64,000 nt of DNA, taken from Psammoneis japonica. Taxonomy: Eukaryota. Below, one piece after another: positions 15,446 through 37,030 of this stretch (its first letter is position 1; each line of letters starts with the position of its first letter). Location: NCBI GenBank assembly GCA_008632985.1, contig QPGO01000017.1, positions 372,001 through 436,000 of the forward strand, read 5' to 3'. Below the pieces are notes generated by a model. It saw nothing but the letters and a program-made list of their open reading frames with translations, was not told where the DNA came from and made no database searches. Position numbers and translations under genes: made by a program.

Positions 15446-16010
15446 AGGCATGCTCCAGTCCCAGGTGATGCACAAGACAACAATCAATTTTGAGTGTAAA
15501 TTGTGCATCTCTTGTGCATGGAGCATTTGAGCATAAATTGCTGAAGCCAGTGTGCTTTTGTGGATGTCAAGAGCATGAACATTTAGTTGGCTTTTTGGTT
15601 GGTGTGAAAGTCCTCATGGGACATGCATCACAAACTCCCTCACCAGCAGACTCAACACGACTGATTGCACATCAACACATTGCATGCAGAGATGATTTGT
15701 CTGCAGGCAGAACCCATGCCAGCAAGCATCACAGAAAAATTGTTTGTGTTGACATCAAAATGACAGCAACAATTTTGCTGAAAATCGTCCATTGAGTTGC
15801 GGCTCGATTGTTGCAACGAAACACATGGATTTCAAAAAAACAATGATGTTGCAACACTGACACGAGTCTTGTCAATGTTGCAAAACATTCAAATTTGGGC
15901 TGGTCCACACTTTTGGTGGAGAAAGCTGGGGCGCGCAAGTCAGAGACCATGCAAAAATTGCAAACTTTGTTTTTGTGCACAGTTTGGTTCATGCGCGGTT
16001 GGAACACGTC
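15446..16010 (+). mobile_element. MITE-like unit, copy 1, within the satellite
   Basis: Aligns with 16224-16759. Ends are degenerate inverted repeats (ggcatgctcca ... tggaacacgtc). Confidence 0.6.
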
Positions 16011-16223
16011 TTTGGCAAGTTTAGCGAGTTTGGCGAGTTTGGAAATTTTGTCAAGTTTGGCAAGTTTGTCAAGTTTGGTGAGTTTGTCAAGTTTGGTGAG
16101 TTTGGCGAGTTTGGCAAGTTTGGTGATTTTGATGATTTTGGCAAGTTTGGAGAGTTTGTTGAGTTTGGTGAGTCTGTCATGTTTGGCAAGTTTGCCCCTG
16201 AGTTTGGCGAGTTTGTCAAGTTT

Positions 16224-16759
16224 GGGTGTGTTCCATCCCCAGGTGATGCACAAAATGACAATCAATTTTGAGTGCAAATTGTGCATCTCTCGTGCATGGG
16301 GAGTGTTTGTGTGTAAAGTGCTTGAGCGGATGTGCTTTTGTGGATGTCCAGAGTGTGCACATTCAATTGGTTTTTTTGTTGGTGTGCAAGTCCTCATGGG
16401 ATGTGTGTCACAAACTTCCTCAGCAGACTCAGCACTGATTGTGCAACAGTGCAATGCATGCAAAGATTCATCTGCATGCAGAGCTCATGCCAGACAGCAT
16501 TGCGTGAAAATTGTTTGTGTTGACATCAAAACAACAGCAACAATTTTGCCGAAAATCACCCGCCGTGTTGCGATTCATTGTTTGTTGCAACAAAAAGATG
16601 GGCTGCACAAAAACAATGACATCGCAGCACTGACATTCAAATTTGTGTGAATCTGTGCTTTTGGTGGAGAAAGCCAGGTTGCAAGTCAGAGACAGTGCAA
16701 AAATTGTGCAAATGTCATTTTTGTGCACCACTTGGTTCGCGTGCGGTTGGAACATGTCT
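16224..16759 (+). mobile_element. MITE-like unit, copy 2
   Basis: Direct repeat of 15446-16010; ends ggtgtgttcca ... tggaacatgtc. Confidence 0.6.
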
Positions 16760-17845
16760 TTGGCAAGTTCGGTGAGTTTGGCAAGTTTGGTGAGTTTGGC
16801 AAGCATGGAGAGTTTGTCAAGTTTGTCAAGTTTGGCAATTTTGGCAAGTTTGTCAAGTTTGTCGAGTTTGGCAAGTTTGTTGAGTTTGTCATGTTTTGGC
16901 AAGTTTGGTGAGTTTGTTGAGTTTGGCAAGTTTGGCAAGTGTGACAAGTTTGTTGAGTTTGGCAAGATTGTTGAATTTGCAAGTTTGTCAAGTCAGGAGA
17001 GTTTGTTGAGCTTGGCAAGCTTGGCAAGTTTGTGAAGTTTGGCAAGTTTGTTGAGTTTGGCATGTTTGTCAAGTTTGGCAAATTTGGCAAGTTTGGTGAG
17101 TTTTGCAAGTTTGGCAAGTTTGTGGAGTTTGGCAAGTTTGTTGGGTTTGTTGAGCTTGGCAAGTTTGTTGAGTTTGGCAAGTTTGTCAAGCTTGGCGAGT
17201 TTGGCAAGTTTGTTGAGTTTGGCAAGTTTGGCAAGTTTGGCAAGTTTGTTGAGTTTGTCATGTTTTGGCAAGTCAGGCGAGTTTGTCAAGTTTGGCAAGT
17301 TTGTCAAGTGTGGCAAGTTTGTTGAGTTTGGCAAGATTGTTGAATTTGCAAGTTTGTCAAGTCAGGAGAGTTTGTTGAGCTTGGAGAGCTTGGCAAGTTT
17401 GTGAAGTTTGGCAAGTTTGTCGAGTTTGGCATGTTTGTCAAGTTTGGTGAATTTGGCAAGTTTGGTGAGTTTTGCAAGTTTGGCAAGTTTGTGGAGTTTG
17501 GCAAGTTTGTTGGGTTTGCTGAGCTTGGCAAGTTTGTCAAAAATGGCAAGTTTGTCAAGCTTGGGGAGTTTGGCAAGTTTGATGAGTTTGGCAAGTTTGG
17601 CAAGTTCAGCAAGTTTGTTGAGTTTGGCGACTTTGGCAAGTTTGGCGAGTTTGGCAAGTTTGTCAATTTTGGCGAGTTTGGCAAGTTTGTTGAGTTTGGC
17701 AAGTTTGGAGAGTTTGTTGTGTTTGGTGATTTTGTCAAGTTTGTTGAGTTTGGTGATTTTGGCAAGCTTGTTGAGTTTGTCAAGTTTGGCAAGTTTGTTG
17801 AGTTTGGCAAGTTTGGAGATTTGGAGAGTTTGGTGATTTTGTCAA

Positions 17846-18186
17846 GTGGACAATTTTTGGCAAAGTCATTGCCGTCATTTGAGTGTCAACACAAGCTGTT
17901 TTTTTGCAATGCTGTCTGGCATGTGGTTTGCCTCTGCAGACAAATCTCTGCATGCAATGCACTGTTGTGCAACCAGCATTGAGTCCGCTGAGGAAGTTTG
18001 TGGCACATGTCCTGTGAGGACTTGCATGCTGACAACAAGGCCATTTGAATGTTCGTGCTCCAAACACCCACAAAAGCACATCCTCTGAAGCACTTCACAT
18101 GCAAACACTTCACACACAAGAGATGCACAATTTGCGCTCAAAGTTGATTGTCATTTTGTGATTCACCTGTGGGGTCGGAACACGTC
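17846..18186 (-). mobile_element. MITE-like unit, copy 3 (inverted, truncated)
   Basis: Reverse complement of the left ~340 bp of copies 1 and 2; ends in ggaacacgtc. Confidence 0.6.
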
Positions 18187-21100
18187 TGCAGTGAGTTTGG
18201 CAAGTTTGGCAAGTTTGCTCCAGAGTTTGTTGAGTTTGTCAAGTTTGGCAAGTGATTTTGGTGAGTTTGGCAAGTTTGGCAACTTTGGCAACTTTGGCAA
18301 CTTTGGCAACTTTTTCAAGTTTGGCAAGTTTGGCAAGTTTGGCGAGTTTGTCAAGTTTGTTGAGTTTGGCAAGTTTGGCAAGTTTGGCAAGTTTGGTGAT
18401 TTTGGCAAGTTTGGCAAGTTTGGTGATTTTGGTGATTTTGGCGAGTTTGGCAAGTTTGGCGAGTTTGCCGAGTTTGGTGAGTTTGCCGAGTTTGGCAAGT
18501 TTTTCAAGTTTGGCAAGTTTGGCGAGTTTGGCAAGTTTGGCGAGTTTGGCAAGTTTGTCAAGTTTGTCGAGTTTGGCAAATTTGGCGAGTTTGGCATGTT
18601 TGGCAAGTTTGGAGAGTTTGGCAAGTTTGGCGATTTTTGCGAGTTTGGCAAGTTTGGCAAGTTTGGTGTTTTTGGTGAGTTTGGCGAGTTTGGCAAGTTT
18701 GGCAAGTTTTTCAAGTTTGGCAAGTTTGGCAAGTTTGGCGAGTTTGGCAAATTTTGCGAGTTTGGCAAATTTGGTGATTTTGGTGAGTTTGGGGAGTTTG
18801 GCAAGTTTGGCAAGTTTGGCGGTTTTGGCAAGTTTGGCAAGTTTGGCAAGTTTGGTGATTTTGGCGAGTTTGGCAAGTTTGGTGATTTTGGTGATTTTGG
18901 CAAGTTTGGCAAGTTTGGTGATTTTTGCGAGTTTGGCGAGTTTGCCGAATTTGGCAAGTTTGGCGAGTTTGGCAAGTTTGGCAAGTTTTTCAAGTTTGGC
19001 AAGTTTGGTGAGTTTGGCAAGTTTGGCAAATTTTTCAAGTTTGGCAAGTTTGGCGAGTTTGGCAAGTTTGTCGAGTTTGGCAAATTTGTCAAGTTTGGCA
19101 TGTTTGGCAAGTTTGGCAAGTTTGGTGTTTTTGGCAAGTTTGGCGAGTTTGGCAAGTTTGGCAAGTTCAGCGAGTTTGGTGATTTTGGTGAGTTTGGCAA
19201 GTTTGGCAAGTTTGGCAAGTTTGGCGAGTTTGCCGAATTTGGCAAGTTTGGCGAGTTTGCCGAATTTGGCAAGTTTGGCAAGTTTTTCAAGTTTGGCAAG
19301 TTTGGAGAGTTTGTCAAGTTTGTTGAGTTTGGCAAGTTCGGCGAACAAGTTTTCAAGTTTGGCAAGTTTGGCGAGTTTGGCAAGTTTGGCGAGTTTGGCA
19401 AGTTTGGCAAGTTTGGTGATTTTGGCGAGTTTGGCAAGTTTGGCAAGTTTGGCGAGTTTGGTGACTTTGGCAAGTTTGGCGAGTTTGCCGAGTTTGGTGA
19501 GTTTGCCGAGTTTGGCAAGTTTTTCAAGTTTGTCGAGTTTGGCAAGTTTGGCAAATTTTTCAAGTTTGGCAAGTTTGGCGAGTTTGGCAAGTTTGTCGAG
19601 TTTGGCAAATTTTTCGAGTTTGGCATGTTTGTCGAGTTTGGCAAGTTTGGCAAGTTTGGCGAGTTTGGTGATTTTGGCAAGTTTGGCGAGTTTGCCAAGT
19701 TTGGTGAGTTTGCTGAGTTTGGCAAGTTTTTCAAGTTTGGCAAGTTTGGCGAGTTTGGCAAGTTTGGCAAGTTTGGCAAGTTTGGTGAGTTTGGCAAGTT
19801 TGGCAAGTTTGGTGAGTTTGGTGAGTTTGGCAAGTTTGTTGAGTTTGGCAAATTTGGCGAGTTTGGCATGTTTGGCAAGTTTGGCAAGTTTGGTGTTTTT
19901 GGCGAGTTTGGCAAGTTTGGCGAGTTCAGCAAGTTTGGTGAGTTTGGCGAGTTTGGCAAGTTTGGCGAGTTTGCCAAATTTGGCAAGTTTGGCAAGTTTT
20001 TCAAGTTTGGCGAGTTTGTCGAGTTTGTCAAGTTTGTCGAGTTTGGCGAGCTTGGCAAGTTTGGCAGTTTTGGCAAGTTTGGCAAGTTTGGTGATTTTGG
20101 CGAGTTTGGCAACTTTGGCGAGTTTGCCGAGTTTGGCAAGTTTGGCAAGTTTTGCAAGTTTTTCAAGTTTGGCAAGTTTGGTGAGTTTGTCAAGTTTGTT
20201 GAGTTTGTCAAGTTTGGCGAGTTTGGCAAGTTTGGCAAGTTTGGTGATTTTGGCGAGTTTGGGGAGTTTGGCAAGTTTGGCAAATTGGCGAGTTTGGCAA
20301 GTTTGGCAAGTTTTTCAAGTTTGGCAATTTGGCGAGTTTGGCAAGTTTGTTGAGTTTGTCAAGTTTGGAGAGATTGTTGAGTTTAGCAAGTTTGTCAAGT
20401 TTGGCAATTTTGGCAAGTTTGGCAAGTTTGTCAAGTTTGGTGAGTTTGTTGAGTTTGGCAATTTGGGCAATTTTGGCAAGTTTGTCAAGCTTGGTGAGTT
20501 TGTTGAGTTTGGCAAGTTTGGCGAGTCTGCAAGTTTGTCAAGTTTGTTGAGTTTGGTTGGCAAGTTTGGCAAGTTTGCTCCTGAGTTTGTCAACTTTGTT
20601 GAGTTTGGCAAGTTTGTCAAGTTTGGAGAGTTTGTGGAGTTTGGCAAGTTTGGCAAGTTTGTTGACCGAGTTTGGCAAGTTTGGCAAGTTTGTTGACTGA
20701 GTTTGGCAATTTTGGTGAGTTTGTCGATTTTGGCAAGTTTGGCAAGTTTGGCAAGTTTGGTTGGTTTTGCAAGTTTGGAGAGTTTGGCAAGTTTGTCAAT
20801 CAAGTTTGGCAAGTTTGGCAATTTTGTCGAGTTTGTCAAGTTTGGCAAATTTGGCAAGTTTGGTGAGTTTGGCAAGTTTGGTGAGTCACAGACCCAAACA
20901 CTTCTGCCGTCATTGCTTGCAACTCTGGCTTGCCCAGGTGCCACCAAATGTGCGCAGCTCTTTTGCCCAGCACTTTTTGGCACAAGGTGGCTGACTTTGG
21001 AATTGCCAGGTTCTCTTGGAGCTGTGCTGCAGACACACCAAGTCCATCCTGTGGCGCGAGCAGTGAACAACATGGCTGCAAAGCTGTGTCAAAGCACCAG

Positions 21101-21839
21101 CAGCCAGATGTCTCTCAACAAGCTCTGGAGACAAGCCTCCCAGCAAGGAACAACACTTGCCACAAGCACCCAAGGAGGAGCAAGAAGTTGCTGTCAAAAC
21201 CACAACATTTTCTGTTTGGCAGATCTGTGGCAAGCAGCACTTGCCACAGCAACCAAGCTTGTGCCACACTTTGAGGCATTCTTGACAAGCAAAGCAGGAA
21301 AAAAGAATGGCTGTCAATGGCGCCGCCCAATGCTCATGGTGGAAATGACAGCCATGATGCCGAAAAAAAAACGCTGTGGACAACTTTTGTGTGACTGGCC
21401 TGTGAGCCAGAAGCAGCTCTAAAAGTGTGATTGCTTGTGCAGCATTGTCTGCAAAGAATGGCTTCCACTCTCATTGAGAATCTCAACAAGAGCTGCAAAT
21501 CTCAATTTTGCATCTGTGATCAACGCTTCCACAGGTGTGGTGGCTGGTGGGGGGCAGCAATTGACCTGGCTTTTTTTGTTGCTGATCAATTTTTAAATGA
21601 TCGCACAAATTTGACTCTTTGTTTGCTGCTGATCTGCCATGGCCATCATCATCAGTTGGTTTGAAAGACAGCTGCATGGGTGGTGCACACTGCTTGTGAC
21701 AATTTCTTTGCTTTGTTGTCACAATCTTGTGGAAAATGGACAGCTGCACAATGACAACCTTTGAGGCAGAGAAGAGAAGAGAACTGTCACACACACCTGC
21801 AAGCCACAACTGTGCCATGGCAACCCACCTCTGCTCTCA

Positions 21840-22470
21840 AATCAACTGTTGCTGGGGCAATGCCAAGGGAGCAAGAGCATTGACATGAAGCAGCACAAGT
21901 GCATCATGTGCAACAGTGGTGTTTGTTTGTTTGTTTGTTGGTGTCTTCTTAAAAAATTCTTGTGTGTGCACTCCATTAGATGGACAGTGTGTTTTGTGGC
22001 TTTTTTGTGACTCAGCCACATTGACAAAGCAGCCATCACTGGGACAATGTCACGTGGTTAAGAGCACTGACACAAGGCACTGCAAAGATGTTGAGCATGA
22101 TGGGGCAGCACGTGTTTGCTGGCATCTTTCGAAGTTCTCACATTTGCACTCCTCCACTTGCTGAATGGGGAGTGTGTTCTGTGGTTTGTTTGCAACTTGG
22201 CTGCATTGACAAAGCAACTGTTGCTGGGCTGACATCAAATGGTTGAGACCATTGATGCAAAGCAATGCCAAGAATGTGACAGCAAGCATGACAGCAGTGC
22301 TTGTTTGTTGGCATCTTCTGACATTCTCATGTTGGCACCCCACCCACATGCCCACATGGACAGCACATTTTGTGGTTTCTCTCTGTGACTTGGCTGTGCA
22401 CCCACAAATCAACCATTGCCAGGACAATGTCTTGCATGATCAACAGCATTGATGCAAGGCAATTTAAGCA
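21840..22470 (+). repeat. Degenerate ~185-bp tandem repeat (3-4 units)
   Basis: Recurring cattgacaaagca..ctggg and gcattgatgcaa blocks at roughly 185-bp spacing. Confidence 0.55.
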
Positions 22471-24399
22471 TGTTGCGTGCACAACAACAGTCTTTCTTTT
22501 TTGGTGTCTTCTGATTTTTTTGTGTTTGCACTCTGCTCAGATGCACAGTGTGATCTGAGTTTTTTCTGCCACCAACAAGATCACAGCAAACAATCAACCA
22601 TGCCAACAGGGACCATGGGGACATGCCAAAAATTCCTTGATGGTGGGTCAGTCAAGAGCAGAGCAGAGTGCACAAATGCGCTGCTGCACTTCTGCAGCTG
22701 GGCGCAACACTGCAACAGGAAGGATTTGCTGTTGCAGACCTTGTGAGTTGACAACATGTGATGACAAAGCAAAAGATGCAGCAGGTGCTGCAGATGTTGC
22801 TGGGCTGCAAAATGTGGCCAAGCAATGACAACAACAACAAACAGGGGTTGAGAGTGGACACAGCAGCAGTGGCAACAAGAGACTGTCTTGATCTTGACTC
22901 AGAAACAGTCTTGTTTTTTGCCCTTTTTTTTTGCCTTGCATGCTTTTGACCTGTTTCAACCACTGACCATTGCTTGTGGTGGCATGGGGCAGATCTCACC
23001 CAGATGCTCCACTGAAATGTGCTTCCCTCATTTCATGCTGAGCTCCATTTGTTTGATGGTGGGAATTCCAGGAAATGGGGCGACCTGGGGTGTCACCTGC
23101 AAGAGCTTCAATCTGTTGCCACAGCTGGGCTTTTTGAGTTCTCTTGTGATGGTCACACACCTTGACACTCATCTTGGCAAAACACCTGAGTTTTCACATC
23201 TGTTGGTGAGCTTTTTGTGATGGAAAAGAAGATGTGGCTCTTGTGGACAACCATGCCAGCAGCAAAGTGTCAACACAACAAATTAAGTTTTGTGCCCTGG
23301 TCTCAAAAAGCACTCTTGTTTTCATTCAACAACTCCATCATTTGCTTGAAGGTGCAAATGCTGAAGCATCTGTGCACCGTTTTTTCAAGATGTTGTGCAC
23401 CCAGTTGCAAGGGAGTTAAAAAAAGATGTGGGTGGGAGGAACAAAGATGGGGCAAACCAGCCAATGCCACTGGCAATTGCTGCCTCTCTGTCATCAAAAA
23501 GAAGAGCCAGCTCACCATGCTCCACCAAAGAATGAGATGGAGGTCTTGCTCCTGAGCTTCATTGCAGCAAGAACAAATGCAACTCCAAGCCAAGCAAGAA
23601 GAAAGCCAGGGCTGACTTTGGGTTCTTGTGCCACTTTGTCCTGTCAGGGTGGTGCTTGTCATGCACAACTGGCCTGGCTGTTCCTGTTGACCTCTTCCTC
23701 AAATTCAACCCCCAAGTTCATCATCTGAGTTGCTGCCTTTGCTGCTGCAAACAGACCACTCAGCAGAAAACTTGCCAGAGGAAATGGAGTCCTTGTCATC
23801 AGAAACTGTCCAAAAGCTGCCATGGGTTCCAAGCAAGAAGCCAGCATTCTCAGAATCAGAGGCTTCATTGCTGGACTCAGAGGCACCGCTGCTCCCCCAC
23901 TGCTGCTGCTCTGCTGTAGGATCAAATGCTGGTCTGCCCCCAAGATCATCCATGAGCAAATTGCTCCCCTTGTTGCCTTGCTCCATTGGCTCCAAGTCCA
24001 TCCCCAACTCATTGCAGTTGGCAGCAGCCAGAACCTTGCCAGGAGTTGCATGACCATGCTCCCATCCTGCTCATTCTCAACTTTGATTTGTTGCCACTCT
24101 TGCTCAGTGCTCAGTCACTGGCCTGACCCACTCTTCATCCCCACAAAAGTCAGCTTCCTTTGCAATCTTTTCCAACTAAACAGTTGTGACAAAGAAAAGA
24201 AACAAGCAAACAAGGGACTTGCAGGCCTGCTTCACTGCTCATGAAGGGCCACAGAGACCTCATCTGCCAGGGCCTGAATGTGGTCCAGACCATCAATGCT
24301 CCAAGTTGGAAAGCTCACTCATTTTTCAATCTGCAGCTGAAACAGGCCTGTCAAGCTTTTCTGTGGCTTCACATCTGCAAAAAAAAACCTGCACCCTGA

Positions 24400-25360
24400 G
24401 GCTGCAATTGTTGCACTGGTTGGTGCCATCATGGTGTCCTTTCAGCATGGAGTTGGGGTGTTCAAGTCTCCTTGTCACATGATTCATGCATGGATGAAGT
24501 GACACGGGGCCACAGCTGTGCCAGGGTTGCCTTGAAACTCTCTGCCACAGCTCTCAAAGTGTCACCCAGGGTCCACCAAAGACCCCCAATGTGCTTCAGC
24601 TGCAGTTGTTGGGTTGGTTGGCACCACTGTCATGCTGTTGTTTCACTGCAAAGTTGGAGCTGGCTTCAAGGAGCCTCATCATGCTTTTGGGAAAAAGTGA
24701 CTGGGGGCACAAACATGCAAGGATGGCCTTGCAACCTTCCACCACAGTTTTTAAACCATTGTTTGGGGCATGCCAAAGACCCCCAATGCTCTCAGGCTGC
24801 AGCTTTTGGGTTGGTTGGTCCCATCATCTTTTAACTGTGTGAAGCTGGGGTGCTCAAGTCTTGCCCTTTGTGGGTTGGCAAAGTGACTGGAGGTCAAATT
24901 GCACAAGGCCAAGGCCAGGGCAGGGTGGCCTTGCAACACTCAGCCACAGTTCTCAAAGCACCACCTGCAGCCCTTCTTCATTGACCTCTGGTGCCCACAA
25001 GCTGTGGCTCTTGGGTTGGCCAGCCTCATCATGGTGTCCTTCTTTTGCTGTGCAAAGCCAGCTGGGGCAGCGTTGAAGTCTTGCCATTCTTGTGAGGACA
25101 AAGTGTTGTGGTGAGGCCTCAGCTGCACCAGATGGATCTTTCAATGCTCAACCATGGCTCTCAAAGTGCTCCCTTGTGCTCTCTTCCAAAGGGAACTTGT
25201 TGGGAAAGTGTGCTCTCTTGCTGGCGTGGACAAGGCAACACAGGGTGTGCCACAACTTCACCAGGTTGGCCTTGCACTGTTCAGCCATGGCTCTCAAATT
25301 GTTGCCTTCTCTTGTGTCTGCCAAAGATTCTCAGTGCTGCCTCCTGGGCTGGCCCTGTGT
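24400..25360 (+). repeat. Degenerate ~200-bp tandem repeat
   Basis: Recurring ggccttgcaac..ccacag..ctcaaag..ccaaagacccccaatg..gggttggttgg blocks near 24520, 24720, 24920 and 25260. Confidence 0.6.
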
Positions 25361-25809
25361 GAGTTGCACATGAACAGCTTTGTGGCCACACCAAGACAGC
25401 CAGCTTGTTCCTGGACACCACCTGCTTGAGACTCGTTCCAGCCCCAGATGGGAGCTTGCAATGCTGACATGTGACACAATTGTTTTTTGTTGTCCGATGC
25501 ATGTTTTGAGCACACATTTCTGCATGTGATCTTCCAAAAAATTGTTCCAGACTTGCTGTTCTGCAAAACCCCAGATGTTTTGTTTGACAAAATTGTGGGA
25601 GCCTCATTTTCTGTTGGCAATCATTGATGCATTCATCACCTCACAATTTTGCCACGGAGCTGGCACGCAAAATTCCATGGCTGGGCCCAGTGTCACACAG
25701 ATTTCCACCTGTGTCTGGAACACGTCTTGACCACCTCCTCCACAACTGCCTTCACAGCCTGAGGCAGCCTCCTTCCAATGAGCTCCAGCCATGACAAGAG
25801 TGCAAAAGC

Positions 25810-25811
<2 letters not shown>

Positions 25812-25853
<42 letters not shown>

Positions 25854-25866
25854 GGGGGGGGGGGGG
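25812..25866 (+). repeat. (TG)n microsatellite followed by a poly-G run
   Basis: Directly visible; about 40 bp upstream of the Ngaro left end. Confidence 0.95.
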
Positions 25867-27389
25867 TGCACATTGGCTGCAAAAACTGGCTGCAAAAGCA
25901 GTCTTTTTGTTGGTCCTTGGAGTCAGAGCAGTGAGTGCATGTGGCAGGCAAAATTCAGACGGAAGGATGACCAGATGGATTTGTTGATTTTTTGGCTGCA
26001 CACATGACAATTGGCAAATTTGGCTTCGCACGCTGATGGTGAACAGTCATTTCATCATTTCTCAATGACTTTGGAAGTCATTGACAATGCTGTGACAATT
26101 GTTGTCAGGCATCGCAAGCTCTGTTGAGTTGTTTTGGTCTTTCAAATCTTTCAAAGACAACAACTCATGCACCATGTTGCTGGAAAACAGCTGGAAGAAC
26201 TTCTTCTTGAGCTGACTGCAAGCAACAATGCACGCTGCATGTTGGGCTCTCTGCAAAAGATTTCACACAAGCCTCCTGCAGAATCAAGTCATTGAGCACA
26301 TCTCAAAGGAGGCACAGTTTTCCTTGATGCATGTCAAGCAACAGGGAACCCCATTTTGCTCCATGGCCATGCTGTCATTGGAGGCACAAGACTCCAACTG
26401 GGAATGTTCCATGTGATGTCAGTTGGAATGGGCTCACGTGCATGCCCTGCACAAGTGGACCCAGACAATTTCTTCAAGATGATGGAGCTTGACACCCCAA
26501 CCTGGAACAACATGTCAAGAACCTGGAATCAGCCAATGAAGCAGACAAGATTGCCCCTCCGACTTGATTGGAGTCAGCCGCCAAAGCCACTTTCCATCCA
26601 ATTGCCCCTCTCCCTCCATTCACAGTGAGCCAATTCACAGATGAAGATGACTGGCCCACATCCATCCTGCCAATTGCCACCCTGTCAGCTGTCAATGTCT
26701 GCAATCAAGCTTGTGACAGTGACAAAAACTGTCCCAGCACCACCAAGGACCTTTGTTGGCTTGCCGCTTTCCTTTGGGCCATTGCCCACGACAAGATCCC
26801 AGCCTTCACCCAAAGTGCTGTCACCAATGCTGCAGCTCTGCAATGCTTCAAAGAACTTCACATGTCTTCCATTGCATCAAATGACATTGCAACAAACCCC
26901 CCAGGTGTCACCTCTGATGCAATGCTGCAAGGTGTTGCCTCAAGCATCGCTGAGCTCACAACACACCTGCAATCCAAACGATCATCTGGAGAACAAGACA
27001 AACAACTTTGAGAAGTTGGCAGCCCACTCCTGACAAATGATTCCATTGGAATTGTCTTAAGATGGCAACACTGCACCTGCCAGCCTGTCCAACCTTGCGT
27101 CCTCATTCTTCAAACAACCAACATCTGCTGCAGCCAGAAACTGGGCACAACACACCCTCAAGAACAAACTTGGATGCCTCGTGGTCACCAAGCAAGGAAT
27201 TGCCACAGCAACACCAGCTAGAGAATTCCTTTGGGACAGAGATGACCTCCCAAACAACTTCAGCACCTTCTTTGCAGCACACCCACCAACAACTCCCCAA
27301 GCAGCAATGACGACAAGACAGCATCAGCCTCTGTGATGCGTTGTCTTCACCTGCAAGTCAAAGAAGGAAAAGGGTTGTCAGACAAAGAC

Positions 27390-29885
27390 TTACGGACTAG
27401 CAATGTTGGGACAATCTAACGGATGTCTAGGACAGATGATAATCGTGCACTAGATGAGAAAGAAAGTGAGCAAAGGAGAGATCATCGGATCTCTCCATGC
27501 AGTCTATGCTAGTCTGTCCGACACAAGGGAGTGTACTCCCCATCTCGGATGTCTGTCACCCTCCCCTGATGAGCAATGCAATGCTCAACAAGAAAGAAAG
27601 AGACGATCCGAATAAAAAAAGAGGACCAGAATAGCAGAACAAAGAAGAGCACCAAAAGAAATGGCCAAGACTTGGTCCGTAAACACGATAACAATCAACG
27701 ACAACATCCCATCAAGGGACGAGCATGTCGGGAATAAACATCCATCCCGCGCTCAACGCATCGGTCTTCGACAAAAAATATCAAAGGTAGTTCCCAATAA
27801 ATCTTTTGGATAAATTGAGTCGTGCACCAGAGAAGAATTTTGTCAATCCATAAATAATCGACCGCAACGAGACATTCTGGCGAGCCATCCTGTCGCCAAA
27901 AATCATCGGAAGAGATGGGGCCAAAAATTGGAAATCCACCATGGACAGTGATACGTTGAAAATGAAGCAATAGCATCCCACCTGATAAACCAATACTTCT
28001 ACCACACTTTGTGTCACCCTTGAAAAACATATTGGAGAAACAAAATACATCATAAAGTCGCTCAACGTCGGAAGAACAGTGACGTATCAGAGGTGAGCAT
28101 CGCACGTCGTTCAAAAAGTGATCGTCAAGTAAGGTATCTTGGCCGAAGATTGAGTTCTCAATGGCCTGATATGTTTCCTCTGCGCTATAGGAATCCCTCC
28201 CCTGATCAAAAAATGTAGGATCATCATCGGCAATGGTGGATAGGTCCGGAGTACCGTGAAAAGTACAAATAGACGCGACAACGGTCCTGACAACAGAGGA
28301 AAGAGATGAAATAGCGAGAGGTAACGAGACTCGGTGGCCCTCTTTCAGGGTTACCCCGCTTTCATTGGTCTTGATGGGATAAGAGAAGGAATGGCAGCAT
28401 CGTATATCCGAAATTAACGACGGCCGAACCAAAAATCCGAATTCGAATCAACTTGACAACCAACGAAGCACTGGCGGCGTCCATGAGTAACAGACGACGG
28501 CGGCGCACAGGTGGTAAGCAACTCGGGTGTAACCTTGATAATAGAGGATAGTCCATAACTGGGGTGAATATGGCCATCTTTACATGGAACAATAGAATGG
28601 CCAGAAACAAAAAACTTCGGGGTCTCGAGTAGGCAGGAGCGGACTTCGGCAGGAAGTACCACCGATTCGGTAGGAATTGCAAGGGATCCCGCATCAATGT
28701 CTGTAGATTGCTTACCCGTAGATTCCATAACAGACACAGTAGACTTGATAGTCAAGGAATTAGCATCCATAGGATCCATCCGAGCATCCATAGCGAGTGC
28801 ATCTTCAACACGAGATACAACAGCAGTGTTGTAGCTACTGGCAGCAGAGGCGGGATCTGGGCACAACTTGGACTCAGCACATGCATGAGAACTTGAAATG
28901 CTCTCCAATCCATTAGTCATGGCTTGCCCACACTCGTTTGGACCAGGTGAATGAGTTGCTAAGGCCTCAGCAAAGTCTTCAGGAGTGGGACCTGCAGTGG
29001 CAACCGGCGGGGATGCAGAACTTGAAGTGGACGGTGGGACTGGATGCGGATCATCTGAAATGTCATCCCAGCAATCGCAATGCTGGAAACCAGGACAGAA
29101 ATGGAAACGTAAAGTGCCAACACACACCTTTGTGGTGCTGTCATTCTCTGTGATCGCTTTGACCATTGCGTTCTGAAGAGCACTGAGGTTCAGACGAACC
29201 GGGGAGCCTTGAGGGGTGGCCACAAAGAGAGGGGCCTTTTCAATGATCGGTCCGATTCGTGTGAGATCTTCAGTCAGGGCAGCTTCAGGGATGACAAGAT
29301 TCTGAATGATCTCGCGATGGAGAACAGTGACAGCATCGCACTTGAGGCCTTGAGGAGCAAATCCATCCAAAAGATCTTCAGGAGCAGGGATCGCGTCCGA
29401 ACAAAGGGTGTTCAGGAAAACATGGGCATCGGGTGAGCGATTGTGTGGGCTGAATTCAACCCGCATTGTCTTGATCTTGGTCAAATCGACGGCGTTTTGA
29501 TTTTTGTTCACCATGGTTGCGCAGGAAAAAAATCAAATTCCTGTGCAGAGCTCTGGTGTGTGTTCCACGGTGGTCGTTTGATCACAAATCGAGAGGTGAA
29601 AAAATGGCTGTGACAATGATGACGATTTCAACGAAGAAAAGGTCGCCAAATCACACAACAGGCGCTGCAGTGGAGGAGCACAGAGGAAGAGGAACAGCGC
29701 ACTGCTGCTCACAACCTTGCAGACTGGCAGCATCAGGACAACCCAACGGACATCTAGGACAGATGATGATCGTGTGCTAGATGAGAAAGAAAGTGAGCAA
29801 AGGAGAGATCATCGGATCTCTCCATGCTGTCTGTGCTAGTCTGTCCGACACAAGGGAGTGTGCTCCCCATCTCGGATGTCTGTCA
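27390..29885 (-). mobile_element. Non-autonomous Copia-like LTR retrotransposon (2.5 kb)
   Basis: 169-bp LTRs at 27390-27558 and 29717-29885; 5-bp TSD AAGAC (27385-27389, 29886-29890); PPT AGGGGAGGG (minus strand, 27559-27567). PBS GGTTGTGAGC follows the 5' LTR and is one TA->TG change from the copia/Ty5-type half-tRNAiMet PBS GGTTATGAGC. No RT or integrase motifs recognised. Confidence 0.88.
28414..29514 (-). pseudogene. Internal ORF of the LTR element (probable truncated gag-like region)
   Basis: 366-aa ORF starting about 200 bp after the PBS on the element's sense strand. Identity inferred from position only. Confidence 0.5.
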
Positions 29886-31399
29886 AAGACATCAAGAAGA
29901 TCACAGAGCAAGAGCTAAAATCACCTGCCACAGCCGATGCTCCATTCTTCCAAATCCAAAACTTCATGAGCCCACATGCCACTGTCATGGGTAAAAACTC
30001 CCCAGCAGCCCAAAACCTTGTGTCACCAGGATTTGCCACATCAAGAAACACTGCAACTCACATGACAACCAAGGGGCCAAAGACCCAAATGTGCTCAACT
30101 CCAGTTGCAAGACTGCACCAATGCAACACTCTGCAGTGATGTGGATGACTCGCTCATCTCTTTTGCCAACTTCCAGCAAGAGACAGTCCCAGCCAGAACA
30201 CTTCACTTGATCCACCCCAGTCTTCTTAGCCACAAACTCCAATGATGACAAGCCAGGAACCAAATGCAAAAAGGCAAAGACAAAGCCAACCAAGACAAAC
30301 TGGTTTGCAATGACAACTTGCTTCCCATTTGGAAACTCAAACAAGGCAAAGACTGTGTGGCAAAGTCTTCCACCCAAACATCAAGACCCTCCCTTTGTTC
30401 AAAGGTGTCCAACTCTGTGGCAAATGCCACGCAAAAGATTGCTGCGCCACCATCTGCTGCAAGTGCAGCCACTCTGAACTCCGTGGAAAAGCCATTGAAG
30501 ATGTGACCAAGTGGGTCTCCTTTTGCCGTGAATGCTCTCCCTCTGCCAAAGATGATGACCAAAAACAGGACGCATGGTCATTGCTTGGCAGTGGCGACCC
30601 ATCCAATGGCAAATGCTTTTGTCCACCACCCAAGCCTCCTCATGACACACCAATGCCAAGCAACACATGCATGCAAGCCAGGCTGTCAAACAAGAAAACA
30701 AGAAATGCCCGACAGAGACAAGAGGATCAAGTTCCATCCTGCACTTCCCCACCCATGTCAGATTGCAAGGATCAAGTTCCCTCCTGACCAATGACCTCCA
30801 CCTGCTCACAACAGACAACAACCCCTTCAGCCCCAGACACAATGCTGTGAACCACCCAACAAGAAAGCCTGGACAGCACAGAGAAACGAGCATTTGAGCA
30901 ATGAGAGATGATTCAGGACATGCTCAGCAAGCATCACACTGACCTGATGGGAGCCATTGAGCAACAGGATCAAGACCCTCAAGACCCAACAGCAACAATC
31001 CCAAGCACTCCAAGAGATGGACACATCCTCCATTGTTTCACAACAAACAAACCTGAGCCACCCAAATCCAACAGTCTCCCTCCTGGGATCACCTGGCGGA
31101 GCCCGCCAAAATGCCTTTGGGCTCAGCAGATCCCAAGGTCCTTGAATCCAAACAGCACTCTCCTTGGAAGTGTCTGATGGAACCTGCTGAACAGTCATCT
31201 TCCCAGGCTGACCCAGCAGCTCCCTCTCAGGCACCAAAATCCAAAAGTTCTTCCTCCAAGGTCAACCCAACAGAGCCTCACATGGAGTTGCATCTCAGCA
31301 CCAACTCATGCACCACCTTGACTGCTCCAGCTCCTCAGCCAAGTTGCTCAAAAGCTCTGTCCAACAAAGCCCTGCTCCAGCTGACAAGCCACATCACTT

Positions 31400-33450
31400 C
31401 ACAATCTCCTCAACTGCCATCAAAACTGATCTTCTCTTTTGAGCTTGCAAAAGAAGCAGCCAAGCAAAACTGGATGATCGTTTCTCAACGTTTCAACCTC
31501 AATCTTGAGAGAGCACTTCAAGCACAATGAACATCCATCCCAGGCTGCGGCTCAGAATTCCGTTTGATTGATGTGCTGCAACCCCTCCTGCATTGTCATC
31601 CATCATGGGACAAAGTTGAACAAACATTGTCCCATGGAGCTGGGCATCCTCTTGAACCAACAGAGGAGACAGCAGCATGCCAAGACAACATGTGAGAAGA
31701 GGTCAATCAAGGGAATCACAAGTCAGCAGTGCGACATGCATCAATCTTGAGAGAGAAACTCCATGACAAAGTTTGCAAAGGCAGGGAACTGCCTTTGCCC
31801 AAAGACAAGATCTGCCATCTTCCCAAAGCCCTGGCGGCCCCACTCAAAGTTGCAGAACAAGACACAATCAATGAACAAGGGGAAGCAGTCCCTTCCAAAT
31901 GTGCCACTCATGAACAATCTTGCAGATTCCATTCAGGGACTTCAGTGAATTCTAGAGTCATCTCAGAAGAACTCACACACTCCCTGTGTGCACAGAAACA
32001 TGCTTTGCTGCCTGATCCATTGCATTGTTTCAATTCAGCTGCGTCACCACAAACCCGAGTTCCAATCCAGAAGATTGATTGTGAGTCAGCCTGCTGTCGT
32101 GGCCACTCAAACAGCAACACCGCAGTTCAGTCGATTGTCACTTGTGATGATCCAGCCCTTCTGGCCCTCTGTTTCACCTTTGGAGGCAAGCCAAACCCAA
32201 ACTTGTGGGGCAACATTTCTGAATCTGTTTGCAACCCGTGTCCAACAACATCCTCCAATGCAAGTCCTGGGACCCATCCACTTTATGAAACCCAGCTCAA
32301 GACCACCTCCCCCTTCCTCACTGCAAAAACAACAATGCGCCATTTGCCCCAGCTCTTGAACTCACAGTTGAGATTCCCCCAACAACAATGGCATCATTGA
32401 TGTCTGCATGGATGACACAGTCACAGTCACACCCAACCTGAATGACAATGTCAAACAAGGAGAAGCGGCAGTGCTGTCAGGGATTCATCCTGTTGGCTGA
32501 CCGGTTCACCCCAAAGAAGACCTCACACAAGACAATCTCACCTGTTTGAAGAAACTCTGTGCCAAAGGATGACTTGAAGAATGGCAGCACTTGGTTGGTT
32601 GGTTGGACACCTGTTGCATGAGCGTCTGTTTGCCAGAACATAAATTTGTTGCTTGGTCCAACCAACTCCGATCCCTCATCAAGAAAGAAGGGTGAGCTTT
32701 CAAAGAAATTGAGCAACTTGTTGGTAGACTCAACCATCTGGGCTGCATCGTGCCACATGCTTGCCATGTTCTAAGTCACCTTTGTCAACTTATGATGCAC
32801 TCCAAAAACAGGAGATGGTGTGAGTTACGACCATCAGAGATCAAAGATGCAAGACTCTGGACAAGATTTCTCAAACAAGCTTGAAATGGTGTCAGCCCAA
32901 ACCTCATCACTTGCCACAAGCCAACACACATCTGTTGATCCAATGCATCAGAACATGGCATTGGTGGCTGCAACATTGCAGCTGGACAGGCTTTCTGATT
33001 TGAACTCCCACAACACCTGGCACATGGTCTTGCAATCAATGCGAAGGAGTTCTTGTCCAGTGTCACATGTCCTTTGATTGATTCCATCAAAGGCAACCTG
33101 CCACCGCTCTCATGTGTCCTCTTCCAAGGTGACAGTGCCACAGCCTCCAGCTGGCTGCAGAAATCCAACTTCAATGAAGAAACTGATCCAGAGCAAATGG
33201 AGATTGCACCCGTCAATTTGCGTTCATCATGCTTGACACTGAGAGTCAATCCTTCAGCCAATGGTTCCCTGGAAAGAAGAACATCATCAGTGATTGCTTG
33301 TCTTGAGACAGAAACTCATCCAATGACACACTCACCCATTTGCTTTGCCACAGTGCACCCAAGCAGGTTTCTCAAAGCTTTCACATCTTGCCACTGCCCA
33401 ACAAAATCATTTCTTGGTTGACCTCCTTGATGCCAAAGACACTTGTCAAC
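31400..33450 (+). pseudogene. Ngaro reverse transcriptase / RNase H remnant
   Basis: AEQDTINEQGE..THEQS, KIDCESACCRGH (K-x-D-x-x-x-AYRR), TFGGKPNP, DVCMDD (YxDD; 32405-32416), INAKEFL, GDSATASSWLQKSNF, QWFPGKKNIISDCLS. Multiple stops and frameshifts. Confidence 0.88.
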
Positions 33451-34520
33451 AAGCAAATGCCAAAGAAACCAACAAGAAGCAAAACACAGTTTTCACCTGC
33501 TGGGAGAAGTTTCTTGGCAAGATTGGACTCAGCGACAACCTGTTCATGGATGAACTCACCATCACCCAACCACACTGCACCCTTGGAGCCTTTGCAGCAG
33601 CCATCAAGAGGGATGTTTCTCAGCAGAACAATTTGACACATGGGTGGCAGGGACCATTGGAGCTGCTGTGGACAATGTGGCATTGACCTTTGGGTCTTGC
33701 AACAGGAAGGACCCAAGGTTGGATGAGGATTGATGGACCTTGCACCTTTTGCTCTGCCAGTGTTGAGGCTGCAAAAACCACAATGGACAACAGAAGCAAC
33801 AGAAAGCAATCACCACCTCACTCCTCTGTGCTTTGTCCCAAAATCAAAAGATGTGCAAAGATGTCACCACAAGCCAACTGACCATCAGAGCTTGGTTCTT
33901 TGCCATGTGCTCTTGCGAGTGCTCCAAGACCAAAGGTGACTGACACAAACCAAACTGCCAACCCTCAAGAATCTCCACTTGACTTCTTCCAAGACAGTGC
34001 CAAACTGCAGCACAAAGACCCAGACTTTGCCTTGGCTGACACCATCTCCATCACCTTCGAATGCCAAAAGAATGACAAGTGATGTGACACCATCACAATG
34101 TTTTGCACCGGGGACAACCTGCTCTGTCCAGTCCATGCATGGGCAGCAGCAGCCCATCATGCACTGTTCCACCCAGGCTCTGTCTCAGACTCCCCAGCAT
34201 GCACCATTGGCAAAAACAGAAAACTGCACTCTCTCTCCTCTTTAATCATCCTGAGATGCAAGCAGCAGCAGTGGCAGCAACAGCAATCGGTGAGAGGACA
34301 AGTTGGGGTGCAAAGCTCATGAAATCAGAACACACTCTGTTTGCTTGGGAGCAGCTGTGGCAATGCATTTTGTGTGCACACCTGTCCACTTGATCATGTT
34401 GATTGGCAGATGGTCTTCAGACGCCTTTCCCCAACACATCCAAGAACAAGTTCAACAATTTGGTGTCAACGTCTCTTCACAAGTGATCAAGCACCAACAC
34501 TTCTTTGCAGTTCCAGACTC
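33450..34520 (+). pseudogene. Ngaro tyrosine recombinase remnant
   Basis: FFAMCSCECS (FFAMRSCEY), ITFECQKND, LCPVHAWA, THSVCLGAAVAM (HSxR), IMLIGRWSSDAFPQHIQEQV (catalytic Tyr position now CAC, 34435-34437). Confidence 0.9.
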
Positions 34521-35243
34521 TGGCCCAGAAGATCCCAGAATCCACAATCATTGTGAACTCCAAGCCACTTGCGCAAACAATGGTCGACGTCAAGCTCAGT
34601 TGATGGCACAACTGCCATTGTTTTGCTCTCTTCACTTGAGTGTCACAGAGCTCAGCAACCAGATTGAAATTTTGCAGGCGAGTCATGATGGCACATCAAC
34701 TGCAGCACTGTTGGGTCCCTGGGGGGTTGTTCACTTCAGGAATGAAAATTTCCTGGGCCAAACCATCAGGCTTTGTTGCCAGACCATTCATGCTCAAGAT
34801 TGGAGTCTGCAACCTGTGGTGAGGACTTGGTTTGATGGGTCATCATTTGTTGGTCCTTGGAGTCAGAGCAGCAGTGAGTGCGTGTGGCATGCAAAATTTG
34901 GATGGAAGGATGACCAGATGAATTCATTGATTCTTTTGGCTGCACACACGACATTTGGTGAATTCAACTTCACGTGTCAATGGTCAACAGTCATTTTTCA
35001 ACAGCTTTGGAAGTTGTTGGCAATGCTGGGATGATCGCCATTGTGTGTCACAAGCTTTGTCAAGTTGTCTTGGTTTTTAAAATTCCCCAAACCCACCACC
35101 CTTCATGAGCTGTGGCACTGCCAGGTCCCTGGGGGATTGTTCACATTGGGAATGAAAATTTCCCAGGCCAAACTGTCAGGTTTTAATGTCAGACTGTTCA
35201 CACTCAAGATTGGAGTCCGCAGCCTGTGGCAAGGACTTGGCTC

Positions 35244-37030
35244 AAACAAACTGCATGGACCAGCACAAGTGTGAAAATTTTGTTCTCAATGACAGCACAT
35301 TTGCATCAAATTGTGGTCAACTTTGACCTGACAAAAGACTCATTTGGGTCAACTCAAATCATTCAAAAATTCACAAGCAGATGTGATCAAATTTTTTCAA
35401 AATGGCCACTTACAAAATGGTGCAGACAATGATCACCCAGGCCAACTGGCTTGGCTGCAAAGCAAGAAAAGATCTTTGCCACCACACAAAATGACACAAA
35501 TTGCAGGATGTGTCCAAGCACAACACAAACAATGACAAAGTTGCAGGAAAACACCATCAACGGCCCGGGAATCCAGACACACCAACAAAGAAAAACTGTG
35601 GGAAAGGTGAGAGATCAGAAGTGCCACGCAGGAGCAGGCTGCTTGGCTTGGACCAAACCACAACAAACCAGTGCACTTGCACTGCAACTTTCTGTCTTGA
35701 AACTCAGACACACATTGACAAAAGCAGCCAAGGATGATTGCAGCTGCTGAGACAATGCTGCAAACATGCAAGTCAAAACAAAAGTGTTGTGTGGAAGTGA
35801 GCTCCTTCCAGCAAACCACAACAAGCTGATGCTTGCACTGCAGCAACTTTCTTTCTGGAAACTGAGCAAGACAAAGTGAAAGAAGCAGGGCCAAGGAAAA
35901 AACATTGTGCCAAGCTCAGCACTTGCCAAACAACACAGTGCCAGCTTGCCATTTCTTTGCTCTCTGCCAACCAGAATTGCTGCCCCCACTGACAAGACAA
36001 GCACAATGACAAAGGACCAGTGGACATTGGCTTCAAGAAACAGAGAGACTGTGGGCAACAAAATGACAAACAAGAAAAGACAGCATGTGACAAACACTGC
36101 ACAATGGAAAGCAACATCATTGGAGCTGACAACAGAACAATTGTTGTCAGATCACACACAACAAGCAGCGACCATCAACAAGAATGACTTGGATGTGCAG
36201 AACCAAGGCCAAACATCTCAATGAATGAGCACTCATGGGCACTTGTCAAGAGCCAATGTCACTTGACAAGAGCAATTTGATGAAGGCAGCCAGACTCTGG
36301 AGCTGCTGTTTCTTGCTTTGCGCAAGGGAGTGGCTGTTGATGGTGTTTCATTTGCTGTTGTTGCAACACAATGAAGTGCAAGAATCAGCTGCAGAACCAA
36401 GCATTTTTGGCATCCTTTCCTGCTTTGCACAAGGGAACAATTTTGTCAAAAAGCCTTCATCAACTTGACAAGAACACTGGGTGGATCACATTTTTCCAAA
36501 ACCCCAACACAAAACTTGTGCCTGTTTTGTTGGTTGTGTTGTCATTGCATGTTCTTGTCCTTTCTGTCATTTGCAGTGCACTTTTTTGCCATTTTTTTTT
36601 CACTTGTTCAACATCAGCCACGCATGCTGCCACACAGAGCCAGCCAGCAATTTGATGAGAGAGCACAAGTCAGCCCCAACACAACTTGCAGAAGCAACAA
36701 CAATGTCCACTGCTGCCAGCCACTGTCCCCAGCAAGAATGTCACTGTGGTGTGCCTTGCTTTTCACTGGAAAGAGTGCAGCTCTTTTGCCAGCTTCGCAG
36801 TTGCTCCACAGACATGTTTTCCTGTGCTGCACTTGTGCTGCAAAATGCAAGGTTCTTGACCTCCATTGATGTTCACCCTCCATTTGAAGAGGATCATCCA
36901 GGGACTGTCTTCCCCCCTGTCCCCAATTGGCCAAACAAAAACGTGAAGGGGGTCATGATGTGTTTTGCGTGTGTCGGGGTGTCTCCACACATCCTTGCTT
37001 TTTGCCCACATGCAGCCGTCTGCCAGTCAG
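35244..37030. repeat. Unclassified TpA-depleted repeat relic
   Basis: Same composition as the adjacent element; no recognised domain. Normal composition resumes at about 37035. Confidence 0.6.

Follow-up and report, generated by a model that had tools for sequence, protein, structure and literature searches.

In ascomycete fungi, repeat-induced point mutation (RIP), which has a premeiotic, duplication-sensing step, creates TpA from CpA and TpG through C to T changes at CpA (TpG). DNA hypermutation from TpA to TpG or CpA has so far been described in a single 2026 preprint, on Bigelowiella natans (Mettrop et al., bioRxiv 10.64898/2026.01.13.699255), which reports that silent integrated viral DNA of mutation-accumulation lines acquires such mutations de novo, and cites ADAT2-like deamination of A and C in DNA for amphioxus and trypanosomes. 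In a diatom, blocks of repeats as long as 30 kb carry CpG methylation (PMC5124317). Descriptions of Ngaro elements (PMC8547959, PMC9210276) define them by split direct repeats ordered A1-[ORFs]-B1-A2-B2, with A1 equal to A2 and B1 equal to B2 (PMC9210276, there citing Goodwin et al. 2004). The window analysed here, a 64,000-nucleotide stretch of Psammoneis japonica contig QPGO01000017.1, contains an old, dead copy of a Ngaro-like retrotransposon, and the sister repeats of this one insertion provide a built-in before/after control.

Reciprocal sites in the sister repeats

The split direct repeats stand in the complete A1-[ORFs]-B1-A2-B2 order of the Ngaro (DIRS order) layout, all on the forward strand. 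The 5' repeat A1 (25906..26147) is 76% identical to A2 (34846..35083), and B1 (34694..34830) is 80% identical to B2 (35104..35240), which forms the 3' end of an element measuring about 6.8 kb once a nested insertion is subtracted. Read depth across the element reaches 120-410, where single-copy DNA has about 60, indicating that a few further copies exist. In a public run, contigs whose depth corresponds to a single copy (about 60) span A1 (25876-27015) with one differing letter and A2-B2 (34816-35450) with three; this run may derive from the assembly's own sample, and the agreement therefore lends no independent support.

Alignments of the sister repeats, identical when computed with our own aligner and with MAFFT, revealed a marked excess of sites at which CA in one repeat faces TG in its sister. 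The A1/A2 alignment (234 aligned bases; 48 mismatches, 42 of them transitions) contains 12 such reciprocal sites, evenly divided between the two orientations (6:6), and the B1/B2 alignment (137 aligned bases; 27 mismatches, 24 transitions) contains eight (4:4). Together they amount to 20 sites in a 10:10 ratio, against 2.6 expected by chance. Random placement of as many transitions and transversions as observed gave a mean of 1.71 reciprocal sites for A and 0.90 for B, with a maximum of six in each, and none of 5000 trials matched the observed counts. The orientations form eight runs among the 12 sites of A (7 expected) and six among the eight of B (5 expected), the expectations being hand arithmetic on the observed order of states, and strand-coordinated runs are therefore absent. 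The initial annotation had pointed to repeated CA versus TG differences in both pairs, and all seven examples that it quoted were recovered in the alignments. A diverged repeat pair (12601-12963/25449-25709) presents three further reciprocal sites.

Since they are located between sister repeats of one element, the A and B differences arose in chromosomal DNA. A reciprocal site requires changes on opposite strands, whether its ancestor was TA or CG, and editing of single-stranded sense RNA is hence excluded as its source. The alignments bear out the proposal of post-integration mutation on both strands, in which a CA/TG site represents a top-strand hit in one copy and a bottom-strand hit in the other. 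The accompanying argument against RNA editing and reverse-transcriptase error held for the sister-repeat differences; it does not extend to changes shared by a whole family, as in the nested element, which may have a pre-integration component. Overall, these results show that the changes erasing TA and CG were made in chromosomal DNA, on either strand about equally, site by site and near saturation. Any candidate enzyme is thereby constrained to a duplex DNA substrate, a symmetric target and a lack of processivity.

Ancestral states and coding relics

The 84 aligned pyrimidine-purine sites of A and B include no CG/CG and no TA/TA pair, nine sites with CG in one copy only and one with TA in one copy only, the latter being the single TA in both copies of A and B (742 bases). 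A model using the ancestral composition of unmutated DNA predicted 13-17 reciprocal sites, fewer than the 20 observed, and assigned 36-54% of them to ancestral CG, 37-58% to TA and 0-18% to CA or TG altered in two steps. In the fit, TA loss would proceed about 2-3.6 times faster than CpG loss; relative to background transitions (16 in 185 non-YR positions), TA loss would be about 110-170 times and CpG loss about 45-50 times faster, these ratios being our own, taken from two model fits with a non-zero background. By our estimate, about half of these sites were formerly CG and roughly two fifths to half formerly TA, with a few possibly representing two-step CA/TG flips; no A or B site is polarised directly, and the TA share rests on composition, on the model and on the coding part of the element.

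This coding part comprises two relics on the forward strand. A tblastn search with homologues P0001-P0150 located a pol-like (RT/RNase H-like) ORF at 31222..33600, frameshifted, interrupted by ten stops and about 35% identical to these 150 homologues over three frames; they are the listed members of a matching family of 5442 proteins (E up to 0.001). Pfam searches of the relic and of eight homologues returned nothing, nor did one of 22 homologues run at a threshold as loose as E 10; a PDB profile search gave no hit. The consensus contains what we read as YIDD-type motifs, and an atlas feature search gave RVT_1 clusters (0.94, 82% RVT_1) and RVT_1+Dam clusters as neighbours of homologue P0016, which we regard as a lead only. 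The second relic (33432..34635) was identified through protein P0151 (47% identity over 114 aa) and resembles a tyrosine recombinase. P0151 itself matched Pfam Phage_integrase weakly (E 0.0015; 18.7 bits, under the cut-off of 27.1), a PHROG integrase at E 0.00093 and Cre at E about 0.5. Under our own placement of the motifs in P0151, the presumed HxxR arginine of the relic is now TGC (34342) and the presumed catalytic tyrosine CAC (34435).

Codon usage in both relics mirrors the loss of TA and CG. Across 740 codon columns compared with the 150 homologues, the pol-like relic has no Tyr where 13.8 would be expected, 35 Cys against an expected 12.3 and 22 Arg against an expected 44.8, besides its stops. 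The nine columns in which Tyr is commonest among homologues now encode Cys (5), His (1) or Phe (3), and the 17 conserved Arg columns read CGT (3), AGA (2), TGN (8) or CAN (4). In the recombinase relic, Tyr has become Cys twice and His three times, and Arg has become TGN five times and CAN eight times. Summed over both relics, Tyr to Cys (7) and Tyr to His (4), like Arg to TGN (13) and Arg to CAN (12), indicate changes on both strands, although changes in the coding region are undatable relative to integration. Confinement of the TA-derived changes to the sense strand, which the initial annotation had named as contrary to its reading, is thus not observed.

The mutated domain and competing explanations

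Dinucleotide counts outline a gene-free domain of about 25 kb (12200..37000) around the element, nearly stripped of TA and CG and enriched in CA/TG. TA/YR drops from about 0.15 to about 0.01 (range 0.00-0.03), and CG/YR from about 0.25 in gene islands to about 0.03 (range 0.00-0.14). The edges at 12.2, 37.0 and 40.8 kb span no more than 200 bp; on crossing position 37000, counts per 200 bp rise from 0 to 10 for TA and from 3 to 13 for CG. The mutated tracts, 32 kb in all, hold nearly equal numbers of CA (3622) and TG (3643), with O/E values of 0.01-0.13 for TA and 1.4-2.0 for CA/TG. TA was lost with CG kept only at 28961-29754 and 62.0-63.6 kb, which indicates that the two losses are separable processes. 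Within such domains, insertion dating by terminal-repeat divergence fails, as does the recognition of coding relics by Pfam.

The losses also affect non-element flanks and a forward-strand 9-bp satellite, TTTGGCAAG, with about 450 units at 16759..20881. In 207 parsed units, its second pyrimidine-purine site reads CA 146, CG 40, TG 21 and TA 0 times, and its first TG 202, CA 3, CG 1 and TA 1 times. A forward-strand tandem duplication at 58160..60051, with copies (58160-59116/59116-60051) 90.5% identical, presents the pattern at an unsaturated stage (CA/TG 8, CG/x 14, TA/x 5, CG/CG 10, TA/TA 2). Its eight reciprocal sites were reached in none of 5000 random trials, in agreement with what had been proposed for this duplication.

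The nested insertion (27389..29885), delimited by depth, TA and CG counts and repeat alignment, is a high-copy element (depth 1400-7900 against about 60 for single-copy DNA) with direct repeats of 150-170 bp (27389-27558, 29716-29885). It has normal TA and CG up to 28960, followed by the tract at 28961-29754. Its repeats hold four reciprocal sites, a number found in none of 5000 random trials. One of these (27407-8/29734-5) is TG/CA where the family majority has CG, which polarises it directly, and two further sites (27440-1/29767-8 and 27534-5/29861-2) are TA/TG where the family is at CA. At 14 sites where the window's copy has TA, a single state (CA at 11, TG at 3) accounts for 85-100% of the family depth. 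These shared states count against the explanation that we favour, because independent hits in each copy would not yield them.

The explanation that we consider probable is that an old Ngaro-like copy came to lie in a silent, gene-free domain in which two context-specific transition processes hit duplex DNA after its insertion. One of them would be ordinary methylated-CpG decay, from CpG to TpG or CpA. The other would convert TpA to TpG or CpA by A:T-to-G:C changes, with adenine deamination as the leading candidate chemistry. Both targets are self-complementary; TG would result from top-strand hits and CA from bottom-strand ones. Near saturation, every site of each repeat copy would have been resolved separately, and because of this independence roughly every second site that was once CG or TA would be CA in one sister and TG in the other. 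Rather unlikely, in our view, is a single machinery hitting both TpA and CpG of duplex DNA in silent chromatin, site by site and on either strand, for instance an ADAT2-like deaminase acting on A and C in DNA. The common, 200-bp-sharp edges of TA and CG loss fit such a machinery, and the tracts with TA loss and intact CG favour two processes or two rates; if real, it would constitute a "reverse RIP" genome defence turning transposons, satellites and duplicated DNA into TG/CA.

Composition bears on whether methylated-CpG decay at saturation could by itself have made all reciprocal sites, leaving TpA loss uninvolved in the terminal repeats. The pair table alone is compatible with an all-CG origin at about 10% survival (own arithmetic), with nine of the ten half-resolved sites being CG/x; furthermore, at three of the 20 reciprocal sites all of three bases differ (TTG/CCA or TGG/CAA), which looks like descent from CCG/CGG, and the polarised site of the nested pair was CG. 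This origin would nevertheless require 50 of the 84 sites to have been CG (2x20+10), or about 43 if two-step flips are allowed (CG/YR 0.51-0.60), together with no TpA. Among 961 unmutated 371-bp stretches of the window, CG/YR peaks at 0.405 and never reaches 0.43, and TA/YR has a minimum of 0.033 and never falls to 0.02 or below. An all-CG origin, the other outcome named as contrary in the initial annotation, hence lies beyond the range of any unmutated stretch in the window, and, with the Tyr codons of the same element gone to Cys and His and the repeats virtually devoid of TA, we regard it as very unlikely. It is even less probable that most sites were ancestral CA or TG, flipped by an ordinary transition to TA or CG and then by the fast process. 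The frequent background transitions and the upper model share would accommodate some such flips, but none is seen in 21 conserved His/Gln/Cys/Trp columns of the pol-like relic, 19 of which keep their residue, and the TG site of the satellite is almost invariably still TG.

An origin before integration, through RNA editing (A-to-I, C-to-U) or reverse-transcriptase error later fixed in the copy, would fit the preference of ADAR-type editing for U 5' of the edited A, as discussed in 10.64898/2026.01.13.699255, and the one-sided states (11:3) common to most of the nested family. We deem it extremely improbable for the sister repeats, given that both strands changed at every reciprocal site in balanced orientations, and that the same loss affects flanks, satellite and tandem duplication in a domain whose edges do not follow element borders. 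The remaining explanation holds that A1/A2 and B1/B2 were never paired, and that the copy is a recombinant or assembly chimera of two separately diverged family members. The elevated depth of the element and certain contigs connecting A1 to A2 coordinates would allow for this; the single-copy-depth contigs over A1 and A2-B2, possibly from the same sample, and the full repeat order speak against it, and mutation of DNA on both strands would be needed in the two ancestors regardless. We consider a chimera highly improbable.

Comparison with known systems

In its repeat order, in its length of about 6.8 kb minus the nested insertion, and in having a putative pol-like ORF upstream of a tyrosine-recombinase-like one, the element resembles the Ngaro of Cafeteria burkhardae (PMC8547959). 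It differs from described Ngaro elements in being a dead copy, with a pol family lacking Pfam RVT_1 or RNase H matches and a recombinase below the Pfam cut-off. The mutations recall ADAR hyper-editing of repeat-derived double-stranded RNA, in which A changes to G and a pyrimidine (U) precedes the edited base, but ADAR acts on RNA and fails to explain sister-repeat differences in two orientations or the loss in satellites and flanks. RIP likewise spoils repeated DNA after insertion by dinucleotide-specific transitions at the DNA level on both strands; its direction is opposite, since here TpA is destroyed and CpA/TpG created. The raised TpA and lowered CpA/TpG that characterise RIP were not observed, TpA being 5- to 50-fold lower in the tracts and CpA/TpG higher.

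Methyl-CpG decay in silenced repeats shares with this locus CG changes that hit either strand and leave TG or CA, in repeat-rich blocks with gene islands spared, as seen in the CG/YR values and Arg codon changes above. Such decay, which we infer here, cannot remove TpA nor convert Tyr codons to Cys and His. The system of the B. natans preprint and this locus agree in A:T to G:C transitions at TpA, giving TpG or CpA by strand, in acting locally on silent foreign DNA, and in a long-term trace of clustered low TpA with high CpA plus TpG; changes at TpA giving TpG or CpA are found here as TA/TG and TA/CA differences in the repeat pairs. According to the same preprint, B. natans shows de novo mutations, almost only A:T to G:C and no G:C to A:T, with a Rho(TpA) of 0.45 in its hypermutable region. 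Here the process is deduced from fixed differences, TpA O/E is at saturation (0.01-0.13), and most tracts also lose CpG within common edges, which we read as a second process beside TpA loss. In this different lineage, the process covers entire gene-free domains as well as retrotransposons, a satellite and a tandem duplication, extending a signature hitherto printed for Bigelowiella alone to the retrotransposons and satellites of another eukaryote.

Reciprocal CA/TG sites in the sister repeats

The element at 25906-35243 carries paired split direct repeats in a Ngaro-type layout, with A1 at 25906-26147, B1 at 34694-34830, A2 at 34846-35083 and B2 at 35104-35240. In Ngaro elements A1 equals A2 and B1 equals B2, according to the passage of PMC9210276 that cites Goodwin et al. 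2004. Alignment of A1 with A2 revealed 48 mismatches in 234 aligned bases, 42 of them transitions, and that of B1 with B2 revealed 27 mismatches in 137 aligned bases, including 24 transitions; both alignments were reproduced identically by MAFFT. At 12 sites in A (orientation 6:6) and 8 in B (4:4), CA in one copy faced TG in the other. Random placement of the same substitutions yielded 1.7 and 0.9 such sites, respectively, and none of 5000 trials matched the observed counts. All seven CA/TG examples listed in the initial annotation were recovered in these alignments, and the like pattern that it had reported for the 58-60 kb duplication was confirmed by 8 reciprocal sites in 58160-60051 (0/5000 random trials). 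The direct repeats of a nested element (27389-29885) presented 4 further reciprocal sites (0/5000 random trials).

Three of the 20 reciprocal sites in A and B are three-base differences (26025-26027, 26106-26108 and 34711-34713, plus their partners in A2/B2), with TGG or TTG in A1/B1 and CAA or CCA in A2/B2. They look like former CCG/CGG, with the outer C seemingly lost too. Outside pyrimidine-purine dinucleotides (YR: CA, TG, CG and TA), the 185 positions of A and B showed 16 transitions and 2 transversions, a high transition excess.

Two broken plus-strand frames lie within the element. The pol-like frame (~31222-33600) is spread over three reading frames and shows ~35% identity to 150 homologues (P0001-P0150), the listed members among 5442 relatives of this segment at E <=0.001. 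The recombinase-like frame (33432-34635) is 47% identical to a single homologue, P0151, over 114 residues. This homologue matched Pfam Phage_integrase (E 0.0015, below the cut-off), PHROG integrase (E 0.00093) and Cre (E ~0.5) weakly. Pfam searches did not return any match for read-through translations of the element or for its pol homologues, those tried from P0001-P0150 lacking one even at E 10, and a PDB profile search with the pol family returned 0 matches. In an Atlas feature search the pol family adjoined RVT_1 and RVT_1+Dam clusters, and we take it to contain a YIDD-type motif. Given that enzyme-domain matches are weak for the recombinase and absent in Pfam and PDB for pol, the label rests on architecture, by which 25906-35243 is filed as a putative Ngaro-like element. 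At 25815-25866, ~40 bases upstream of A1, a (TG)n stretch precedes a run of ~17 G.

Restriction to gene-free tracts and timing of the mutations

The window consists of gene islands alternating with gene-free tracts. The sum of the four YR dinucleotides is unchanged by the mutations considered, and expressed against it TA and CG amount to ~0.15 and ~0.25 in gene islands, versus 0.00-0.03 and 0.00-0.14 in gene-free tracts, where O/E values for CA and TG reach up to 1.4-2.0. The Ngaro-like element is contained in the tract at ~12.2-37.0 kb. The process is domain-restricted. The boundaries of depletion (12200, 37000, 40800, 48400 and 57500) coincide with gene-island borders; they are sharp to ~200 bp, and TA and CG shift jointly at most of them. 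Across position 37000, for instance, counts per 200 bp rise from 0 to 10 for TA and from 3 to 13 for CG. Depletion is equal in the element flanks and in a 4-kb satellite of the 9-bp unit TTTGGCAAG (16759-20881, ~450 units). In 207 parsed units, the variable site of this satellite reads CA in 146, CG in 40, TG in 21 and TA in 0, and the adjoining TG site is TG in 202. Related arrays are present at 15236-15444 and 16011-16225.

Surviving TA dinucleotides (n=91) in mutated tracts (13001-27300, 29900-36900, 41001-48000 and 58001-62000) are preceded by T in 55% of cases and followed by A in 59%, versus 21% for each in unmutated DNA. Contexts of the TTA/TAA type seem to be protected or regenerated in these tracts.

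The proposal that mutation followed integration was upheld: sister repeats differ from one another, the edges of depletion ignore element borders, and the satellite and the tandem duplication show a like loss, which together locate the process in chromosomal DNA. The nested element (2.5 kb, direct repeats of 150-170 bp) is younger than the Ngaro-like element and mostly unmutated, apart from a 0.8-kb tract at 28961-29754 with 1 TA in 794 bp and normal CpG. TA is similarly scarce (1-3 per 200 bp) at 62.0-63.6 kb, again with normal CpG, and CpG in these two tracts amounts to 7-16 per 200 bp. TA loss can therefore proceed without CpG loss, and it appears to be the faster of the two. A four-state substitution model fitted a TA rate 2-3.6 times the CG rate, and survival in the 58-60 kb duplication, from pair counts, is 0.44 for TA versus 0.59 for CG.

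The nested element encodes two long minus-strand frames (372 and 250 aa); neither matched Pfam, and a homologue search with the 372-aa frame found none. Its depth in a public sequencing run whose contigs were compared with the window is 1400-7900, versus ~60 for single-copy DNA, indicating a high copy number. The comparison with this run covered 40 listed places of 1938 variable ones, mostly within the nested element. Among these listed places, 14 that read TA in the window copy are opposed by a single common state across 85-100% of family depth (CA at 11, TG at 3), which is not the mixture expected under independent hits. This suggests that a master lineage was hit before amplifying, or that there is a strand-biased component acting before integration.

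Ancestral states and strands

Metagenome contigs were scanned with degenerate patterns for further copies of A and, separately, of B, with 0 matches in either scan, and tblastn of the 151 homologues against the whole window found no second family copy in it, but further copies of the Ngaro-like element do exist among the contigs of the public run, compared at 80% likeness. Flanking-base context, considered as a classifier of TA and CG ancestors, separated the two too poorly to sort the sites. The shares of TA and CG at the 20 sites are hence estimates, drawn from composition, the model, coding relics and nested repeats.

The 84 aligned YR sites of A and B comprise 31 TG/TG, 23 CA/CA, 20 CA/TG, 9 with CG in one copy, 1 with TA in one copy, and no CG/CG or TA/TA. 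Reciprocal sites make up half of the doubly resolved sites at saturation, implying that ~43-50 of the 84 were once self-complementary. An exclusively CG ancestry would require CG/YR of 0.51-0.60 and no TA, yet among 961 unmutated 371-bp stretches of the window CG/YR never exceeded 0.405 and TA/YR never fell below 0.033; the two combined reached at least 0.51 in 45 of them. With the composition of unmutated DNA as ancestor and a background transition rate taken from the 185 non-YR positions, the four-state model under-predicted the reciprocal sites (13-17 expected, 20 observed), and attributed 36-54% of them to CG, 37-58% to TA and 0-18% to two-step CA/TG flips. Two observations count against the TA share: nine of the ten half-resolved sites retain CG, and three reciprocal sites resemble former CCG/CGG. 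Among the variable places listed for the nested repeats, the reciprocal site formed by 27407-8 (TG) and 29734-5 (CA) has CG as its family majority, and two sites present TA in one repeat and TG in the other, with CA in the family.

Coding relics also bear on the ancestors. Over 740 codon columns, with 10 stops, Tyr was absent (13.8 expected from homologues), Cys rose to 35 (12.3 expected) and Arg fell to 22 (44.8 expected). The nine columns in which Tyr is commonest among homologues read Cys (5), His (1) or Phe (3) in the window, and 17 conserved Arg columns read CGT (3), AGA (2), TGN (8) or CAN (4). Conserved His/Gln/Cys/Trp columns kept their residue in 19 of 21 cases and were flipped in none. 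In the recombinase relic, whose N-terminal alignment is weak, Tyr became Cys at 2 and His at 3 positions, and Arg became TGN at 5 and CAN at 8; the affected codons are read as including a putative catalytic Arg and Tyr pair. These data show that both TA and CG ancestors were present in this locus, and define the context and direction of the mutations.

The inference that both strands were hit holds for any ancestor, as in every CA/TG pair one copy must have changed on its top strand and its partner on the bottom strand. The expected strand symmetry was observed, with orientations of 10:10 over the 20 sites, and TA-derived changes were not confined to the sense strand, Tyr having become Cys 7 times and His 4 times. 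With regard to strands and INDEPENDENCE, half-resolved CG sites read CA at 4 and TG at 5. Arg codons of both relics went to TGN in 13 and to CAN in 12 cases, and 32 kb of mutated tracts contain 3622 CA and 3643 TG. Consecutive reciprocal sites follow one another as by chance (8 runs over 12 sites in A, 6 over 8 in B), so the hits are independent single-site events and not strand-coordinated clusters.

Candidate processes and known systems

The CpG component would correspond to ordinary decay of CpG, presumably methylated in these tracts. The part of PMC5124317 concerned with a diatom describes CpG methylation filling blocks of repeats as long as 30 kb, with gene blocks spared. The TpA component, a conversion of TpA to TpG/CpA, may rely on a chemistry and an enzyme like those proposed for Bigelowiella natans, and could be active still. 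Fungal RIP operates in the opposite direction: it produces TpA, whereas the tracts of the window lose it.

Among the titles and abstract openings listed by literature searches, none gave a fitting account of TpA loss in diatom repeats or of genomic A-to-G hypermutation of retrotransposons, the Bigelowiella preprint being the sole fit. It describes de novo TpA to TpG/CpA mutations in two silent viral insertions of that alga, and its authors suggest that an ADAT2-like enzyme deaminates the adenine (10.64898/2026.01.13.699255). The TpA part of the window pattern matches these mutations. The signature itself is already on record for another alga, in a single preprint of 2026, and what the present locus adds is a clean internal control, in the form of sister repeats, together with quantitative constraints, rather than a new kind of system.
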